64,000 nt of DNA, taken from the NCBI GenBank assembly GCA_903892035.1, contig CAITGV010000001.1, positions 18,578-82,577 of the forward strand, written 5' to 3'. Position numbers and translations under genes: made by a program. Each line of letters starts with the position of its first letter. The first letter of the stretch is position 1. Positions 26,932 to 54,292 of this stretch are shown here, piece after piece. The DNA comes from an uncultured bacterium (GTDB taxonomy: Bacteria > Patescibacteriota > Minisyncoccia > Phycocordibacterales > UBA9973). The notes under the pieces are model-generated. The model had not been told where the DNA came from. It saw only the letters and a list, made by a program, of their open reading frames with translations, and made no database searches.

Positions 26932-29900
26932 TTAATTCAAAATATATTTCTGAGACTTTGGACCAAATACTCCGTCGGCAATAAGGCCAACAGATTTTTG
27001 AAAAGCTTTTACAGCTTTAAGTGTTTTTAATCCAAAATAACTTACTTCTTTTCCACTCGAACCAGCACCAGAAACTGAAACAATAAAACCATGACTATTT
27101 AAATATTTTTGTAAAATTACAACACTTTGGTCATTCATACCAAAACGTAATGTTTTATGAAAGGCATAATTTATTTTTGAGTCAGAGATTGCTTGAGTAG
27201 AATTTTGATTGACTGTATTTACAGCAATCACTGGTATAGTAGGTACTATCACGGGTGTAGGTGTAACTGCGGGAGGCGGAGTATAACTTCCCCCTCCTCC
27301 TCCACCACCGCCCCCACCTCCACCGCTCTGAATAATTTGTGCATTTACTGTGACAGTACGAGTAACTTCAGTAGCTTGATTACCTTCAAGGTCAGAAACA
27401 TTGTAAGTCAAAATATATGTCCCTGCTGTGTGCGTATTTACAGGATTTACAGTAATAATTTTTGAAGTAATATCCCCTTCTAAGTCATCACTTGCAGTTG
27501 CTCCAGCATCAGTATATGTTGATCCATAAGCAACAGATACATTACTTGAACCTACTAAAGTTATTACTGGTGGAACACTATTTACTTTTGAATTTTGAAA
27601 ATTTGCAATTGCTTGATTCAACGTAATCACTTCAGCATCTACCTCGCTTTGAGTATTTACATTTGTCATTGCACTCGCGATATTTATAGCAGTTTGTAAA
27701 ATTATTTTTGATCCTACGATATAAAGTCCTGGTGTACTACCTTCTACCGCAGAATTATAAATTGTATTTGCTGAATTTATGACTCCAGTTAAAGCAGTCA
27801 AATCAGAAGGATCATTTATTGTTACAGTCACAGTATAATCTTGAGTAGTCACACCATCTCCAGCAGTCACTGTAAAAGTTTGTGGTACTCCACTCACAAA
27901 AGCAATATTTCCTGAATCTGGAGAAACTGTTGCTTGAGGTGAAATACTTATAACAATCGGTAGAGCGCTAATATCTGTACCATATCTTTCAGTAAGAGTA
28001 ATATTTGTTCCACTTATAATACCATTTGCAGATGGTGAAGTTGAATTAAAAGATAAAATATTTGCCGCAGTATTTGATAAAACATTTATAGTCGCAGTAT
28101 ATGTCACGGTTGAACCGTCTCCTGCTGTGACTGTGTAAATTACTGGATTTATAAAATCTGTTGAAATACCAGAAGCTGGGCTCACACTTGCACCAACAAT
28201 CGATATTGTAGGAGAAAGAGTTGTTATATTTGTGCCGTAAGGAACATTTAGTGCAATAGTTTTATTATTTTCATCTACAACCCCAACTGCGGAAGGATTT
28301 GTAAAATCAAAAGAATTTATTTTTTTATCAGGGTCGACAGCAAGCAAGGCGCTGCCTGCATTTATTCTTTTCCCTGATGTGGTTTTACCAGAGAGTGTCG
28401 CAAGTGTATCACCAGAATTCAAAATATCATTTTTAACTTGAGTGGCTGTGAGTGTCGGCTGATAGCCCCAAATGAGTCCAGCAAGACCTACTACGTGTGG
28501 TGTGGCCATTGAAGTACCAGAATAATAAGCATAGAGCTCATTACTTCCATCGTTTAATGTATCGATAGTTAAGTTATCAACACTACAACCCAAATGATTA
28601 TTATCTACACCATTTGTCACCCAATCAAAACGAAATTTAAAATTTGAAGTAAGATATTGTGATGGAATTGGAACATCTTGGAAGTTATAAGAAGCACTCC
28701 CAGCAGGATTTGAATCACTGTCTAAATATGCTTCGTCCCACATAAAATCTCCTCCATAAAATGGATCAATTGCTGGTGTAAAGTTTACTCCATCTGAACT
28801 ATAGTAAAGTTCCATATAATCTGTCCAACTTGTTAGGCTGTATTGTGTGTCACAAGTTGCATCAAAACTTATTGTTGCGCCAGTAGTTGTACCACCTAAG
28901 TCTATCGTAGGTGAATCTATTGTTGTATTTGCATTGCTTGTATAAGGCATACGATTTGTATCTCCAAATAAAACTTTATTTCCTGAAGTACTGAGTACAC
29001 CAAAGTGATTTGTCGTACTTCCGCCACGTGTCCAATTTACGGGAATAGCATTTAAAGATGTAGATGTAAAATCTTCAGTATATTTTATGAAATCTGCAAT
29101 CGTACTTAAAATATTTACCCCAGGTGCACCAACATCTACAGAAGTCGTACCGAAATCAGAAAAGCTTGCCAAATGATCATTTTGGTCAGTCGCAGCAACA
29201 GAGATTATGTTGTCCAAACCATAGTCTGAAGGATAAAAATGATTGTTATCATTATTTGTACCACTATTTCCTGCTGCAGCTACAAATATTCCACCGGAAG
29301 CTCTAAATCTAGCTATTGCATCATATTCTGCCTGAGAAAATTGTGACCCACCGTAGCTTGCATTTATAACTTTGGCACCATTTTGGGTTGCAAAATCAAT
29401 TGCTTCAACTTCTGTGGCAACATCAAAAGCAAAACGTATTGCCATTATTTTTACATGTGGAGCTACTCCTACTATACCTGTTGTATTATTTTTTTCTGCA
29501 GCAATTGTACCTGACACATGAGTGCCGTGAGAAGAATCGACAGGTAGTGGTGTAATATCGTTATCAGCAAAATCATAACCGTGATTACACCCTCCAACGA
29601 TTATCGTTCCATTTTCATCTACACAATTTGTTCCATCCCACATTTGATTTATCAAATCTGGATGATTGTATGCAACACCAGTATCAATCACTGCCACGAC
29701 TACATCTGCATTCGTACCTTGATTTATCCCCCATGCATTATTAATTTTTATGTCAGAACCAACTGTTCCGGTTGTTGTACTGAAATCTCCTGCAATAGTC
29801 TGCCCAGTATTGTCGAGCCCCCAAAGTCTATCTCGATACGTATCATCTGTGGAAATATCAGAAAAACTTCTTTTGTAGTTTGGTTCTGCGTATAAAACAT

Positions 29901-30237
29901 TTGGATCACTTTTTAATTCAGCAATTTTATTATCAATTGATTGTGAGCTATCTACAGAAAGTATAGAAATATTACTACTTCTAATATTTTTCTTTATTCC
30001 CAAATTTTTACTTAAAGCAAAATTTGATATTTGAGAACGTCCACTTATTGTTTCAAGATTTATTTTGTCTTTTTTATATTTAACAATTATTTCCCCATCC
30101 ACATATTTTCCGAAAGGTATATGTGTATTTTGATTTTTTGTATTATTACCAAGTGCTAAAACAAAATTTGCATTCAAAAAACCCAAAACTATGATAGTTA
30201 AAAATATTGATTTAAGAATAATTTTGCTTCTTTTCAC
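26932..30237 (-). CDS. S8 subtilisin-like serine protease (1101 aa) with Gly13 linker and C-terminal peptidoglycan-binding (PG_binding_1-like) domain
   Basis: Signal peptide; catalytic triad contexts VIDTGV (Asp), HGTHVSGTIAA (His), GTSMATPHVVGLAGL (Ser); C-terminus LRFGMNDQSVVILQKYLNSHGF...GVFGPKSQKYI. Confidence 0.85.
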   Translation of the reverse strand: MKRSKIILKSIFLTIIVLGFLNANFVLALGNNTKNQNTHIPFGKYVDGEIIVKYKKDKINLETISGRSQISNFALSKNLGIKKNIRSSNISILSVDSSQSIDNKIAELKSDPNVLYAEPNYKRSFSDISTDDTYRDRLWGLDNTGQTIAGDFSTTTGTVGSDIKINNAWGINQGTNADVVVAVIDTGVAYNHPDLINQMWDGTNCVDENGTIIVGGCNHGYDFADNDITPLPVDSSHGTHVSGTIAAEKNNTTGIVGVAPHVKIMAIRFAFDVATEVEAIDFATQNGAKVINASYGGSQFSQAEYDAIARFRASGGIFVAAAGNSGTNNDNNHFYPSDYGLDNIISVAATDQNDHLASFSDFGTTSVDVGAPGVNILSTIADFIKYTEDFTSTSLNAIPVNWTRGGSTTNHFGVLSTSGNKVLFGDTNRMPYTSNANTTIDSPTIDLGGTTTGATISFDATCDTQYSLTSWTDYMELYYSSDGVNFTPAIDPFYGGDFMWDEAYLDSDSNPAGSASYNFQDVPIPSQYLTSNFKFRFDWVTNGVDNNHLGCSVDNLTIDTLNDGSNELYAYYSGTSMATPHVVGLAGLIWGYQPTLTATQVKNDILNSGDTLATLSGKTTSGKRINAGSALLAVDPDKKINSFDFTNPSAVGVVDENNKTIALNVPYGTNITTLSPTISIVGASVSPASGISTDFINPVIYTVTAGDGSTVTYTATINVLSNTAANILSFNSTSPSANGIISGTNITLTERYGTDISALPIVISISPQATVSPDSGNIAFVSGVPQTFTVTAGDGVTTQDYTVTVTINDPSDLTALTGVINSANTIYNSAVEGSTPGLYIVGSKIILQTAINIASAMTNVNTQSEVDAEVITLNQAIANFQNSKVNSVPPVITLVGSSNVSVAYGSTYTDAGATASDDLEGDITSKIITVNPVNTHTAGTYILTYNVSDLEGNQATEVTRTVTVNAQIIQSGGGGGGGGGGGGSYTPPPAVTPTPVIVPTIPVIAVNTVNQNSTQAISDSKINYAFHKTLRFGMNDQSVVILQKYLNSHGFIVSVSGAGSSGKEVSYFGLKTLKAVKAFQKSVGLIADGVFGPKSQKYILN

Positions 30238-30591: not shown

Positions 30592-30837
30592 AAGCTAAAA
30601 AAATTCCCCAGGTGGCAGCCCGAGGAATCTCAAAAATATGTTTCCGGAGAAATAGTCATACACCGCCTTAAAATGCTGACGTGACTCGGTCTTCCTAACT
30701 GTTTCGGAATGGAAGATTTAACAGAAATATATATGTCATATATATTGATAATATTCAAAATGAATATTATATTTAAAATCTACAAAGTAAGTAGCTTGGC
30801 TCCGCGGGTAGGGATCGAACCTACGACCAATCGATTA

Positions 30838-31406
30838 CACGAATCCTAATATTACTAAAAGGGGTGGACTATATCATATCCATGTTTTTACTTTCATAAA
30901 AATTTAGGACCAAGGCGCTTCCCGCTCTCTATAACTAGAGAGAAGTACTCCCCGAAGGGATAGTCTCTACACCTGCCCGCCGACCTAGGTCGGAGGGATT
31001 GGCTCGGGATTGTCCTTTTTACTGACTAAGGATTTCCCCGAATTCACCTTGTTTTTCATCCTTGCTTTCGCAAAGGAAGCTGCGTAATGCCCGCTTCGAC
31101 TTCTCTGTGACAGTTTGCACAAAGTAATACACATTTATCAAGTTCTGCTTTTACTCTCTCCCAACTTCGCGTGTATCCCTTCGCGCCAATCCCAAATTTT
31201 TTATTTAAAGGATTAACATGATGAAATTCAAGCGCATCTGTGCAACGAGAATAATGACAAATTTCGCAATTGCCACCGAGATAATTTAAAGACAATTCTT
31301 TAATCTTTTTTCGGCGTTTTACAACTGCTTTGATAAGTGTATCGCGACGCATAGCATAAGTTCGTTTCTCTGGCATAAGTTTATTATACCAAATGAAACT
31401 GGACCA
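30838..31406 (-). mobile_element. group I-like self-splicing intron in the tRNA-Asn anticodon loop (between positions 35 and 36), carrying an HNH endonuclease ORF
   Basis: Follows a U in the 5' exon and ends in G; R-like (AGAGACUA, ~30963-30975) and S-like (AUGAUAUAGUCC, ~30868-30880) elements can pair as P7; ORF lies in the 5' part. Confidence 0.65.
31056..31376 (-). CDS. HNH homing endonuclease (intron-encoded)
   Basis: CEICHYSRC...EFHHVNPLN...LLCANCHREVE, a complete HNH/zinc-finger motif set; 106 aa. Confidence 0.8.
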   Translation of the reverse strand: MPEKRTYAMRRDTLIKAVVKRRKKIKELSLNYLGGNCEICHYSRCTDALEFHHVNPLNKKFGIGAKGYTRSWERVKAELDKCVLLCANCHREVEAGITQLPLRKQG

Positions 31407-31509
31407 CAGTCGATTGCTCTACCGCTGAGCTACCGCGGAGCTAAACCACTTACTTTAAAATACAAAGAACTACCCGACATAATAGCAAAAAGAGTGCTAA
31501 AATGCAAAG

Positions 31510-36462: not shown

Positions 36463-39400
36463 ATGGCTTCAAAATTCGTCCATTTGCATACTCATTCTCA
36501 CTATTCCCTTTTAGATGGTCTTTCGAAGGTGGACGATATTGTAAGTATTGCAAAGAAAAACAAAATGAAAGCAATTGCTTTAACTGACCACGGAAGTATG
36601 TATGGATCAATTGATTTTTATAAAGCCTGCAAAAAAGCAGACATTAAACCAATTATTGGTGTTGAAGCCTATATTGCCGAAAGATCACGCCTCGACAAAG
36701 AATCCGGCATCGACAATCGTCGCTACCACCTCACATTGCTAGCAAAAAATCTTACTGGTTACAAAAACCTTATTCGTCTTGTTACTCGCGCAAACCTTGA
36801 AGGATATTATTATAAACCAAGAATGGACAAAGAAATACTTCGCGAACATCACGAAGGTATCATTTGTCTTTCGGGTTGTATGGGTAGCCAGCTTTCGCAA
36901 GCAGTTTTATCTGACAATAATGAAAGAGCTGAAGAATTAATAAAGGAACACATTGATATTTTTGGTAAAGAAAATTACTTTATAGAACTTCATTCACATC
37001 CGCACGTCGAAGGTGATAAAAAACTTCGCGACGGTTTGATAGCTCTTGGAAGGAAATTTAATATCACCCTTGTTGCAGCACAGGATTCTCACTACCCTTG
37101 CAAAGATGACCACCATGCACACGAAACATTACTCGCAATACAAACTGGCGCAGAAACAAACGAATCAAATAAATTTACTTTTGGTGAAGATGACTTTTCT
37201 TTGATCGATGAGAAGACCGCCTTAGAATACTTTGCCGACATTCCAGAAGCTGTAACAAATACTCAAATTGTCGCTGATATGTGCGATATTGAACTCACGC
37301 TTGGTACCTGGGTTTTCCCTGATTTGAAAATTGAAGATGGCATGTCTTATGAAGACAAACTTCGAGAGACAGCTTTTGCTGGTTTTGAAAAAAGAGAAAT
37401 GGAAAAAACCAAAGAAGCAGTGGACCGTCTTGAATACGAATTAAAAATTATTCTAGATAAAGGTTATTCTCCATATTTCTTAGTTGTGGCTGACCTCATT
37501 CGTTTTGCTCGAGAAAGTAAAATTTTAACAACAATTAGAGGTTCCGTCGCAGGCTCGCTTACTACTTACCTTATCGGTATTACAAATGTGGACCCAATTG
37601 CATATAAACTTCCATTTGAACGTTTCCTAAATCCTGAACGTCCTTCTGCTCCCGATATCGATATGGACTACGCCGATAACAGACGCGATGAGGTTATTCA
37701 ATATGCAAAAGATAAATATGGTGAAGATAAAGTTGCACAAATTGGAACATTTGGAACGATGATGGCGCGTGGAGCTGTGCGTGATGTGGCTCGAGCACTC
37801 GGCTATCCATACGGTATTGGTGACAGAATATCAAAAATGATACCGATGGGCTCACAAGGCTTTCCAATGACAATTGATCACGCTATTGAAATTGTACCTG
37901 AACTTAAAGACGCATATGAAAAAGAAAAAGATACAAAAGAAATTATTGATTTAGCCAAAAAACTTGAAGGTTGCGTACGACACATCTCAGTTCACGCTGC
38001 TGGAGTTGTGATTGCACCAAAACCTCTTTATGAATATGCTCCAACTCAACTTGATCCAAAAGGTGGAAAAATCATTACTCAGTATGATATGTATTCTATT
38101 GAAGAAGCTGGTTTACTAAAATTCGACTTCCTAGGAATTAGAAACCTAGCAATTTTAGGAGATGCAGTGGACCTTGTAAAAAGAATTCACAATATCGATA
38201 TTGATTTGGAAAAAATTCCTCTTGATGATAAAAAAACTTTTGAAATGCTTGCACGCGGAGAAACAGAAGGACTTTTCCAATTAAACGGAAGTGGTATGAC
38301 GCGATATCTAAAAGAGTTGATGCCATCTACAATTCACGATATAAACGCCATGGTTGCCCTTTATCGCCCAGGACCTATGGAAATGATTCCTGAGTACATT
38401 AAAAGAAAACACAACCCTTCTTTGGTCCGTTATCTCGATCCTAGAATGAAATCAATTCTTGATCAATCTTTTGGAGTTATCACTTACCAAGATGACGTCA
38501 TGCTTATTGCAATCGAACTTGGTGGTTACTCTTGGCTTGAAGCTGACAAACTTCGTAAAGCTATGGGTAAAAAAATTCCAGCTGAAATGGCATTACAAAA
38601 AGAAAAATTACTTTCAGGTTTTATGGAAAATGGTCTTTCTAAAGAAAAAGCAAAGACTCTATGGGAACTTATCGAGCCTTTTGCAGCTTATGGATTCAAT
38701 AAAGCTCACGCAGCAAGTTATGGGCGAGTCGCATACCAGACATCGTACATGAAAGCCAATTTCCCTATTGAATATATGTGCGCGATTCTTTCTGCTGAGT
38801 CTGGAGACGTAGAGAAAATTTCTGAAATCATTACTGAATGCAACAAAATGGGCATTACAGTTCTTCCTCCTGATGTAAATGAAAGCTATGGAGGTTTTAC
38901 AGTCGTAAATGACCCAAAAGAAAATTCGATTGGAACAATTCGCTTTGGTTTATATACAATTAAAAATTTAGGCACAGATATCGCTGATGCAATAATTGCC
39001 GAAAGAATGGACCCGCCAAATGGTGGAGGAAAATATAAATCTATCGGAGACTTTTTAGAGCGTATTAAACACAAAAATCTAAACAAAAAATCTCTAGACG
39101 CTTTAGTAAAATCTGGAAGTCTCGACAACTTTGGCGAAAGAGGCGCACTTCTAGGAAATATGGAGGAAATGCTTGCTTACAATAAAGAAACAAATCAGGG
39201 TAGCCAAGCACAGACTTCCCTATTTGGAGATTTGCCTAGTGAAGTGCTTACACTAAAATTAAAACCTGCCGAGCCTGCAAAAAAAGAAGATAAACTCGCT
39301 TGGGAAAAAGAACTGCTTGGTTTATATATTTCTGGCCATCCTCTCGACAAATACAAAGACAAACTAGAGAAAATGGAATGGAATATTACGAAGATTTTAA

Positions 39401-39660
39401 ATGAAGGCAAAGATGGTGGACTTGTGACAATTGCAGGTATTGTGACTGAATCGAGAATTATCATCACAAAGAAAAATGAAAGAATGGCTTTTATTAAAGC
39501 CACTGACATGAAAGGAACTATTGAAGTGGTAGTTTTCCCAAAATTATTCCAAGATGCAGCTTTAAATATTGAACTTGAGAAATGTATAGCCCTAAAAGGC
39601 AAAATCTCTCTTCGCAATGGCGAAAAAAGTATTATTGCCGAGGCTATTAAGATGATCTAA
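36463..39660 (+). CDS. dnaE: DNA polymerase III alpha subunit
   Basis: PHP domain FVHLHTHSHYSLLDG; polymerase core motifs; 1065 aa. Confidence 0.95.
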   Translation: MASKFVHLHTHSHYSLLDGLSKVDDIVSIAKKNKMKAIALTDHGSMYGSIDFYKACKKADIKPIIGVEAYIAERSRLDKESGIDNRRYHLTLLAKNLTGYKNLIRLVTRANLEGYYYKPRMDKEILREHHEGIICLSGCMGSQLSQAVLSDNNERAEELIKEHIDIFGKENYFIELHSHPHVEGDKKLRDGLIALGRKFNITLVAAQDSHYPCKDDHHAHETLLAIQTGAETNESNKFTFGEDDFSLIDEKTALEYFADIPEAVTNTQIVADMCDIELTLGTWVFPDLKIEDGMSYEDKLRETAFAGFEKREMEKTKEAVDRLEYELKIILDKGYSPYFLVVADLIRFARESKILTTIRGSVAGSLTTYLIGITNVDPIAYKLPFERFLNPERPSAPDIDMDYADNRRDEVIQYAKDKYGEDKVAQIGTFGTMMARGAVRDVARALGYPYGIGDRISKMIPMGSQGFPMTIDHAIEIVPELKDAYEKEKDTKEIIDLAKKLEGCVRHISVHAAGVVIAPKPLYEYAPTQLDPKGGKIITQYDMYSIEEAGLLKFDFLGIRNLAILGDAVDLVKRIHNIDIDLEKIPLDDKKTFEMLARGETEGLFQLNGSGMTRYLKELMPSTIHDINAMVALYRPGPMEMIPEYIKRKHNPSLVRYLDPRMKSILDQSFGVITYQDDVMLIAIELGGYSWLEADKLRKAMGKKIPAEMALQKEKLLSGFMENGLSKEKAKTLWELIEPFAAYGFNKAHAASYGRVAYQTSYMKANFPIEYMCAILSAESGDVEKISEIITECNKMGITVLPPDVNESYGGFTVVNDPKENSIGTIRFGLYTIKNLGTDIADAIIAERMDPPNGGGKYKSIGDFLERIKHKNLNKKSLDALVKSGSLDNFGERGALLGNMEEMLAYNKETNQGSQAQTSLFGDLPSEVLTLKLKPAEPAKKEDKLAWEKELLGLYISGHPLDKYKDKLEKMEWNITKILNEGKDGGLVTIAGIVTESRIIITKKNERMAFIKATDMKGTIEVVVFPKLFQDAALNIELEKCIALKGKISLRNGEKSIIAEAIKMI

Positions 39661-47845: not shown

Positions 47846-48198
47846 CAATGCTTTGTGCCTATAAGCCGAATTCTGTTATCGATAGTCATTTATCTAGCCC
47901 CTCGATTACTCTCGGGGTCAAGCGGCACTTCCTTCGACTTCGCTCGGGACTAGTCCTGAACTTGTTGAAGGACACGGCCTTGCATTCACGTAAGGATTTA
48001 GCCGTTTCATTCTGATATTTCTATCAGCCTATCCCTTACGGGACCCTAGCCTTTCGGCATCGGCGTTTCTGCTCGCACCTCTATGATTGCTCACGACGGG
48101 CGTTACCCGCTACGCTTTCCCTCGATTACTCTCGGGATAAATGTTCGGACTTTCCTCCCTACAGCCAAAGCCATAGAGTAACTATCCAGCACAAAGCA
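47846..48198 (-). ncRNA. rnpB: RNase P RNA (bacterial type A-like)
   Basis: Minus-strand GGGAGGAAAGUCCGAACA (P4 5' strand) and ACAGAAUUCGGCUUAUAG (P4 3' strand); P1 GCUUUGUGC/GCACAAAGC closes the molecule; -10 TATAAT lies 7 nt upstream; terminator-like hairpin at 47805-47835. Confidence 0.85.
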
Positions 48199-52504: not shown

Positions 52505-54120
<1,616 letters not shown>

Positions 54121-54292
54121 AAATTGTTATAAATAACAATAGTTTGTGAGAACGGAACAAAATAAAAAGTATAATTTTTATGTGCTCACATTTTTAGGAA
54201 ATAGCTCTTAATTATATAGAAACTTGCATCTAATTATGTCTTGTATTCACTATTCCGTTGTAAAAGAAAGCGCCTAAAAAAGACGCTTAACT

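Follow-up and report, generated by a model that had tools for sequence, protein, structure and literature searches.

A gene for the asparagine transfer RNA (tRNA) with anticodon GUU, tRNA-Asn(GUU), located in a 64-kilobase (kb) stretch of DNA from an uncultured bacterium (the window; positions 1–64000, to which all coordinates refer unless stated otherwise), very probably holds in its anticodon, between tRNA positions 35 and 36, a self-splicing group I intron that shows subgroup IA features and carries a gene for an HNH-family endonuclease in the loop of its helix P1. All parts of the locus lie on the minus strand, and their coordinates are collected in Table 1. A model had proposed such a tRNA gene, split at 35/36 by an HNH-encoding group I intron, from the letters alone (hereafter the sequence-only reading), and this overall structure is upheld by covariation among homologues, by intron-less alleles and by a homologue spliced in vitro.

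The two exons were joined in silico into an RNA of 75 nucleotides (nt), which ARAGORN called as tRNA-Asn(gtt) with a regular cloverleaf, comprising an acceptor stem of 7 base pairs (bp), a D stem of 4 bp, and anticodon and T stems of 5 bp each, along with U1:A72, G73 and an encoded CCA, all as claimed beforehand. Two details of that claim needed correction: the span 30797–31440 locates the gene properly, but the tRNA 5' end is 31439, with 31440 as position −1, and the two minus-strand segments that form the tRNA are separated by an intron of 568 nt (31405–30838) instead of a gap of 569 nt. ARAGORN in default mode returned no tRNA gene across the whole window, Rfam at gathering thresholds detected only a 16S ribosomal RNA (rRNA), an RNase P RNA and the group I intron, and the public gene call lists the open reading frame (ORF) of 106 amino acids (aa), as a hypothetical protein without a Pfam domain, and no tRNA. 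The prediction that annotation would overlook this tRNA-Asn therefore holds. No conventional tRNA gene was reported in the 64 kb by ARAGORN or Rfam, and the split gene is the sole tRNA gene of the window. A consensus scan yielded a candidate sigma-70-type promoter approximately 40 nt upstream of exon 1, predicted to serve the pre-tRNA. The bases G and C of the tRNA 5' flank (31440–31441) are complementary to G73 and C74 (30799–30800), and the acceptor stem of the precursor could therefore be extended to 9 bp, which, if formed, might influence 5' processing by RNase P.

The window sequence alone does not decide between two placements of the splice sites, since a shift of both by 2 nt in the 5' direction, giving an exon 1 that ends in ...GACU, an intron GUGG...UUCG and an exon 2 that starts with UGUAAUCG, still has the 5' splice site preceded by a U and the intron ending in G. 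In this shifted register the gene would be a tRNA-Thr(UGU) with an intron at 33/34, which is what ARAGORN called, as tRNA-Thr(tgt), when run in intron mode on the unspliced locus and on 17 of 80 related loci, and what tFind calls for many such genes. The comparative evidence leaves the threonine register a negligible chance. The internal guide sequence GCAG (31083–31080), directly upstream of P2, pairs with exon nucleotides C32–U35 and puts a U35·G wobble at the 35/36 junction, directly 5' of the splice site at 31406, whereas U33 would lie opposite an A. P1 is extended by a pair of G31405, the first intron base, with C31084; across 65 loci this pair is G-C in 44, A-U in 14 and mismatched in the other 7. 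P9.0 joins the base before the terminal G to the one that lies two positions 3' of P7. It is A-U in 32 and G-C in 22 of 54 aligned homologues, and is thus paired in every one and perfectly covariant with the base just before the terminal G of the asparagine register; the terminal G needed by the threonine register is an A in 33 of the same 54. U1:A72 and G73 are, in addition, identity features of tRNA-Asn. Taken together, the guide, the covarying P1 extension and the covarying P9.0 fix the predicted splice sites at 35/36, and the spliced product of a homologue, once sequenced, was joined at that very position (Nakagawa et al. 2026, PMC13011429). Two other ways of forming P1 were considered and rejected: a hairpin directly downstream of the 5' splice site (GACUG/CAGUU), which lacks conservation and would leave U35 without a partner, and a second candidate guide, GAAGUCGA at approximately 31102–31095, which has a G-A mismatch beside the wobble and likewise lacks conservation.

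The asparagine register was further applied to homologous loci, where all 71 that could be resolved spliced into a tRNA-Asn(gtt) with U1, A72, G73 and covarying anticodon stems; four more, left unresolved by the script, show CTGT/G... and ...G/TAAG by eye. A scan for the uninterrupted tRNA-Asn junction, which the sequence-only reading had suggested as a means of defining the homing site, returned more than 120 metagenome contigs, and all 38 distinct sequence variants of these intron-less genes were called Asn(gtt). Their BLAST alignments to the window break exactly at 31406/30837, which independently supports the insertion site at 35/36, including for genes with the same tRNA body. One intron-less allele (L192) equals the spliced tRNA of the window at 75 of 75 positions; its flanks showed no synteny with the window, and it therefore does not provide a direct before-and-after pair within one species. 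The proposal that the intron starts after U35 and ends in G is thus supported by the guide wobble, the P1 extension, P9.0 and the breaks of the intron-less alleles alike. The asparagine register was well chosen, although the reading that chose it had overlooked the 2-nt-shifted tRNA-Thr(UGU) alternative, which guide, P1 extension, P9.0 and intron-less alleles now exclude.

The group I identity of the intron, likewise proposed beforehand, was assessed with Rfam model RF00028, which matched 31096–30845 over its full length (1–253) with 65.9 bits against a cut-off of 50 (E = 1.7e-14). The R-like and S-like elements singled out from the sequence are present as AGAGACUA (30968–30961) and AUAUAGUCC (30874–30866), and their GACUA and UAGUC segments pair to form P7. 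A P1–P9 fold could be modelled, for which P2, P3, P4, P5, P6, P7, P7.1, P8, P9.0, P9 and the P3/P7 pseudoknot were mapped onto the 54-sequence alignment. Standard pairs were formed in 92.5% of the cells, compared with 74.8% after shuffling and 31–48% when the partners were slid by 1–3 columns; 38 of 52 pairs changed on both sides, compared with 17–24 when slid; and the covariation score was 0.506, compared with 0.06–0.13 when slid. None of 500 shuffles matched the observed values. P7 is invariant in the 54 homologues and thus uninformative for covariation, although always paired. The window copy itself forms 48 of the 52 modelled pairs in standard fashion, and of the remaining four, two are U-U mismatches in P9, one is a mismatch in P6, and one is an artefact of how a bulge in P2 was aligned. 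P7.1 and P7.2, which follow the 5' strand of P7 and precede the 3' strand of P3, are a mark of subgroup IA, a criterion reportedly set out by Michel and Westhof in 1990. By this mark the intron would, to our knowledge, have subgroup IA features, which agrees with the classification by Nakagawa et al. The model score, the covarying core with its P3/P7 pseudoknot, the U·G wobble with the guide, and the terminal G with P9.0 jointly argue for a genuine group I intron.

By homology to the relative spliced in vitro, the window intron would be expected to self-splice in a guanosine-dependent manner. A pre-tRNA would be made from the locus, and P1 would form between exon nucleotides C32–U35 and the guide, with the U35·G wobble at the cleavage site. 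Guanosine would then attack after U35, whereupon the terminal G, next to P9.0, would direct exon ligation to yield the mature tRNA-Asn.

The ORF within the intron (31376–31056) encodes the motif CEICH...HHVN...CANCH, in accordance with the full HNH motif initially claimed, and the Cys, His and Asn residues of the motif are invariant in 27 family members (C37, C40, H52, H53, C82, C86, N88, C89 and H90). These proteins are 59–74% identical to that of the window and have 34 invariant columns, metal and zinc ligands included, which argues for selection on the protein itself and for an active HNH fold. PHROG HNH families matched the protein with E = 3.6e-27, and the search against solved structures gave a best E of 0.08, with none close. 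The catalytic motif and the zinc-binding cysteines are those of an HNH homing endonuclease, as which the protein is predicted to act. Homologous introns devoid of the ORF have just 5–9 nt where the window carries the gene. Since the window aligns with them over the whole core and is longer by some 320 nt in the stretch from the 5' splice site to the guide, the HNH gene is an insertion into the P1 loop of an otherwise ordinary family member. Its last nine codons traverse the guide GCAG and the entire P2 (31056–31089), with the stop codon directly after P2, and the 3' end reads GGC AUU ACG CAG CUU CCU UUG CGA AAG CAA GGA UGA. Passage of a ribosome over this end and folding of P1 and P2 should therefore be mutually exclusive on one and the same RNA. 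The GCAGC segment is unchanged even at third codon positions of the HNH gene.

The leader of the HNH gene contains a conserved promoter-like motif. In a comparison of 44 distinct leaders whose start codon is secure, a −10-like hexamer occurs 4–10 nt upstream of the start in 32, compared with 3.9 ± 1.8 in shuffled leaders, and is extended by TG in 20, compared with 0.23 ± 0.49. The motif ends 6–9 nt before the HNH start in the homologous leaders (loci L001–L080). A Shine-Dalgarno core was found in none of the 44 leaders, nor in that of the window. These figures suggest that an intron-internal extended −10 promoter drives a leaderless HNH mRNA, although the motif may alternatively play a role at the RNA level. 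Nakagawa et al. 2026 (PMC13011429) make no mention of a promoter motif in the intron.

Table 1. Features of the split tRNA-Asn locus (window coordinates) and related phage loci (coordinates of each locus).
Feature	Position	Strand	Details
Candidate sigma-70-type promoter of pre-tRNA	31479–31508	−	TTTGCA, 18-nt spacer, TATTAT; TG before second hexamer; consensus scan
Exon 1 of tRNA-Asn(GUU)	31406–31439	−	34 nt; tRNA positions 1–35; ends in ...GACUGU; in-silico splicing and ARAGORN
Group I intron	30838–31405	−	568 nt; subgroup IA features; terminal G at 30838
Extended −10-like motif TGGTATAAT	31383–31391	−	Within P1 loop; ends 6 nt before HNH ATG (31376)
Predicted HNH endonuclease gene	31056–31376	−	106 aa plus stop; in P1 loop (L1)
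Internal guide sequence, P1 3' strand	31080–31084	−	GCAGC, invariant in 54/54 aligned sequences
P2 hairpin	31060–31076	−	CCUU(U)GC-GAAA-GCAAGG; 99.7% of cells paired; 5/6 pairs change on both sides
P3 5' strand	31045–31051	−	95.8% of cells paired; compensatory changes
P4	31041–31036 with 31009–31004	−	99.1% of cells paired; compensatory changes
P5 and P6	31003–30971; P3–P6 region 30971–31051	−	P5 85.6%, P6 91–99% paired; compensatory changes
P7 5' strand	30961–30965	−	GACUA; invariant; pairs with 30871–30867; part of R element
P7.1	30960–30949	−	UCCC-UUCG-GGGA; 4/4 pairs covary
P7.2	30942–30925	−	CUCUCUA-GUUA-UAGAGAG; single-sequence fold
P3 3' strand	30911–30917	−	CGCCUUG; closes P3/P7 pseudoknot
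P8	30878–30910	−	4/4 basal pairs covary; 94.4% of cells paired
P7 3' strand	30867–30871	−	UAGUC; invariant; part of S element
P9.0 pair and terminal G	30838–30865	−	A30865:U30839, terminal G 30838; P9.0 paired in 54/54
P9 hairpin	30862–30845	−	GUAA loop; 72.8% paired
Exon 2 of tRNA-Asn	30797–30837	−	41 nt; tRNA positions 36–76; starts with UAAUCGAU; encoded CCA at end
Phage locus L201	1155–1779		HNH homologue at tRNA gene
Phage locus L202	1095–1719		HNH homologue at tRNA gene
Phage locus L203	1279–1722		HNH homologue at tRNA gene
Phage locus L204	1366–2125		HNH homologue at tRNA gene

Phage introns of subgroup IA with HNH homing endonucleases, such as that of SPO1 with I-HmuI, interrupt protein-coding genes; as commonly described, they resemble the window intron in having an IA-type core with P7.1 and P7.2 and an HNH-family gene. 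The classic bacterial tRNA introns, mostly of subgroup IC, comprise those of cyanobacterial tRNA-Leu(UAA) at 34/35, tRNA-fMet at 33/34 and tRNA-Arg(CCU) at 36/37, and have in common with the window a self-splicing group I intron that sits in the anticodon loop, follows a U and ends in G. Assignment to this IC-type class (Leu-UAA, fMet, Arg-CCU, Ile) was discarded, as the window differs from it in the host tRNA, in the insertion site and in the presence of P7.1 and P7.2. The window intron belongs instead, by host tRNA, site, homologous ribozyme and host phylum, to the 35/36 class of Patescibacteria tRNA-Asn and tRNA-Asp. The sequence-only reading had deemed an asparagine host with an insertion at 35/36 unusual, which is out of date: the class, HNH-bearing members included, figures in Nakagawa et al. 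2026, and Williams 2020 (10.1101/2020.01.27.920355) had raised the number of interrupted-tRNA types to 21, its tFind being credited by Nakagawa et al. with the first listing of the site, as 'Asn.4Ug'.

Nakagawa et al. (mSystems 2026, PMC13011429) report that 95 complete Patescibacteria genomes contain 15 tRNA-Asn(GUU) and 3 tRNA-Asp(GUC) genes split at 35/36 by group I introns, and describe the Asn/Thr miscall by ARAGORN and tFind. In their survey, tRNA introns of Patescibacteria are nearly all of subgroup IA, with 25 of 28 introns at 35/36 so classed by subgroup covariance models, and subgroup IC accounts for 81% of all bacterial tRNA introns and for none of those in Patescibacteria. One Asn and one Asp intron self-spliced in vitro exactly at 35/36, with a terminal G-to-C mutant as control. 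Four tRNA-Asn introns longer than 500 bp encode HNH (PF01844) endonucleases, and are the only four HNH-bearing ones among the 333 tRNA introns of the complete-genome survey, in which endonuclease-bearing 35/36 IA introns occur in Patescibacteria only. The guide sequence and the position of the ORF in L1 are not described there. The four HNH-bearing introns, whose sequences are provided in the authors' Tables S3 and S4, were recognised from the intron lengths and sequences of Table S3 as those of GCA_023898525.1 and GCA_016699425.1 (both Paceibacteria), GCA_001029735.1 and GCA_000503835.1. They coincide with the window in host tRNA, insertion site, phylum and the ARAGORN/tFind miscall, as well as in the order of the parts, namely exon CUGU, short leader, HNH ORF, ...GCAGC(U/C)U, P2 and core. 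The window differs in that it derives from a separate genome and in that its exons match none of the 15 listed tRNA-Asn genes, which makes it a further, unlisted member; the arrangement as such was published in 2025–26, and the window adds one instance.

The self-splicing Asn intron comes from the Saccharimonadia genome GCA_016700035.1; it has no ORF, its product spliced in vitro at 35/36 was sequenced, and its terminal G-to-C mutant was blocked. It is 61% identical to the window over tRNA and core, and has the same GCAGC guide, P2–P9, P9.0 and terminal G. This intron is 234 nt long and starts CUGU/uaaagGCAGCC..., with a P1 loop of 5 nt; after P7 it has one different hairpin, compared with P7.1 and P7.2 in the window. 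Across the whole tRNA and core, the window aligns with this and two ORF-less Paceibacteria introns at 61–67% identity and with the same helices.

A search at E ≤ 1e-3 yielded 1829 homologues of the HNH protein. Relatives are encoded in at least 362 species-representative genomes, and among the matches listed nearly all are labelled Patescibacteria; the best relatives found are 70–74% identical. The best 80 of the 1829 loci were examined for intron context: in 74, ARAGORN in intron mode called a tRNA whose intron encloses the HNH gene, the remaining six lie mostly at contig ends, and 75 of the 80 share the intron context of the window. HNH-bearing tRNA-Asn introns at 35/36 are also present in contigs assigned to Blastocatellia of the Acidobacteriota (loci L050, L060, L075 and L080), where the tRNA-Asn body is a distinct one and the periphery after P7 differs. 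One Blastocatellia contig, CAVSDJ010000007.1, is 2.9 megabases (Mb) long, a length that makes a mis-binned Patescibacterium unlikely.

Phage relatives are free-standing HNH genes directly downstream (approximately 70–150 nt) of an intact tRNA-Asn(GTT), as in Bacillus phages Goe5 and Bastille and the Prevotella megaphage Lak-C1, and in Salmonella phage Meda a homologue lies within a tRNA cluster. Phage tRNA clusters are also known to hold the endonucleases F-Tfl of T5 and SegB of T4. The closest phage homologues are 57–67% identical to the window protein over 69–88% of its length; those of Goe5 and Bastille are longer (147 aa, compared with 106 aa), and the Goe5 gene has a normal Shine-Dalgarno leader, unlike that of the window. 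No group I ribozyme was detected at E ≤ 0.01 in the three phage loci tested, and a DNA comparison of the window ribozyme core with phage records found no similarity. In the Lak-C1 homologue, an in-frame TAG lies within the conserved HNH region (...AATCCTGAATAGAAAGAT..., approximately 1590–1600 of L203), which fits the stop-codon recoding reported for Lak phages. These free-standing genes beside tRNA-Asn offer a lead on how intron and endonuclease came together.

Several points weigh against a functional intron with an active endonuclease. The support for this particular copy comes from sequence and comparison, P9 has its two U-U mismatches, and a second, intron-less tRNA-Asn is possible elsewhere in the genome, outside the 64 kb. 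A conserved P10 was not found in the 54-sequence alignment, a UAA/UUA pairing being possible in the window, and P10 is not claimed because the 5' side of the guide varies without compensation in homologues. The Pfam HNH model PF01844 scored 19.4 bits, just below its cut-off of 21.4, and nuclease activity is a prediction throughout this family of HNH proteins. As to the promoter within the intron, the case for it is the motif statistic, and a promoter tool that needs a −35 hexamer did not list the motif at 31383–31391. The mismatches in P9, the single irregularities in P2 and P6, the lack of an evident P10 and a view limited to 64 kb of the genome would suit a decaying copy, with a ribozyme that has lost splicing, a split tRNA-Asn reduced to a pseudogene, and another tRNA-Asn outside the window that supplies the function. 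We consider this very unlikely, given that 48 of 52 core pairs are standard and all invariant core bases present, that an intron-less allele from elsewhere matches the exons at 100% identity, and that the HNH ORF is unbroken and retains every catalytic residue.

With splicing taken as the preferred reading, the HNH protein, possibly expressed as a leaderless mRNA from an extended −10 promoter of its own, would act as a homing endonuclease, cutting intron-less tRNA-Asn genes and thereby spreading the intron. The pair may be mobile, as the sequence-only reading supposed. ORF-less and ORF-bearing introns share the 35/36 site across lineages, and the identical intron-less tRNA has flanks that are not syntenic with the window. 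The intron might instead splice and be inherited vertically only, with an HNH protein that is not an active homing endonuclease but could be a relic kept through its overlap with guide and P2, or serve another role such as assisting splicing. That the protein is small (106 aa) with no recognisable separate DNA-binding domain, that the function of its family is predicted from sequence, and that no presence/absence pair within one species was found, the flanks of L192 being non-syntenic, lend this some weight. It is nonetheless improbable in view of the 34 invariant columns in proteins that are 59–74% identical, with all metal and zinc ligands among them, of ORF-bearing and ORF-less introns at one site in related lineages, of ORF-bearing copies with different tRNA bodies in contigs assigned to Acidobacteriota, and of free-standing phage homologues that adjoin tRNA-Asn, as expected were the tRNA-Asn gene the target. 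More tentatively, and with the balance somewhat against it, the HNH gene could have entered the P1 loop of an older tRNA-Asn intron that had no ORF, as an invading cassette that is expressed independently. The putative extended −10 promoter and leaderless mRNA may speak for this, as may the mutual exclusion of translation and ribozyme folding, and the existence of an HNH lineage that would target tRNA-Asn genes, whether free-standing (Bacillus and Lak phages) or intron-borne. So may the at least 362 genomes with relatives, those sampled being in intron context and including Acidobacteriota, compared with four HNH introns among 333.

The predicted host is a Patescibacterium of Paceibacteria type: the closest named relatives of its DnaE (36463–39660) are labelled Paceibacterota, Nomurabacteria and 'Patescibacteria group', at approximately 70% identity, the G+C content is approximately 36%, and the source contig measures 488 kb. 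The neighbours of the tRNA locus are ordinary chromosomal genes, which encode an S8 peptidase, a DUF167 protein, an M1 aminopeptidase and DnaE. The S8 subtilase-like surface protein, downstream of the tRNA (26932–30237, minus strand; 1101 aa), contains 13 consecutive glycines, followed by a Pro/Thr-rich linker and a peptidoglycan-binding domain. The 16S rRNA gene (52515–54121, minus strand; 1607 nt) has a 39-nt insertion near its 5' end, and neither a 23S rRNA nor a spacer tRNA was found beside it within the window. The RNase P RNA (47846–48197, minus strand) scored 110.7, little above the Rfam cut-off of 100, and has several shortened helices.

A missed tRNA-Asn affects the assessment of genome completeness and codon usage in Patescibacteria, a point already published in 2025–26. 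To this, the present analysis adds that guide and P9.0 settle the Asn/Thr ambiguity without BLAST against intron-less tRNAs, and that the endonuclease gene sits in the P1 loop behind a conserved promoter-like motif and without a Shine-Dalgarno core. Draft genomes seem to contain HNH-bearing copies far more often than the complete genomes surveyed, and may revise the published rarity of endonuclease-bearing tRNA introns. The Blastocatellia copies, if true, would extend endonuclease-bearing 35/36 IA introns beyond Patescibacteria, and, were the HNH gene indeed an independently expressed cassette, horizontal spread would carry more weight than in the published view of limited transfer.

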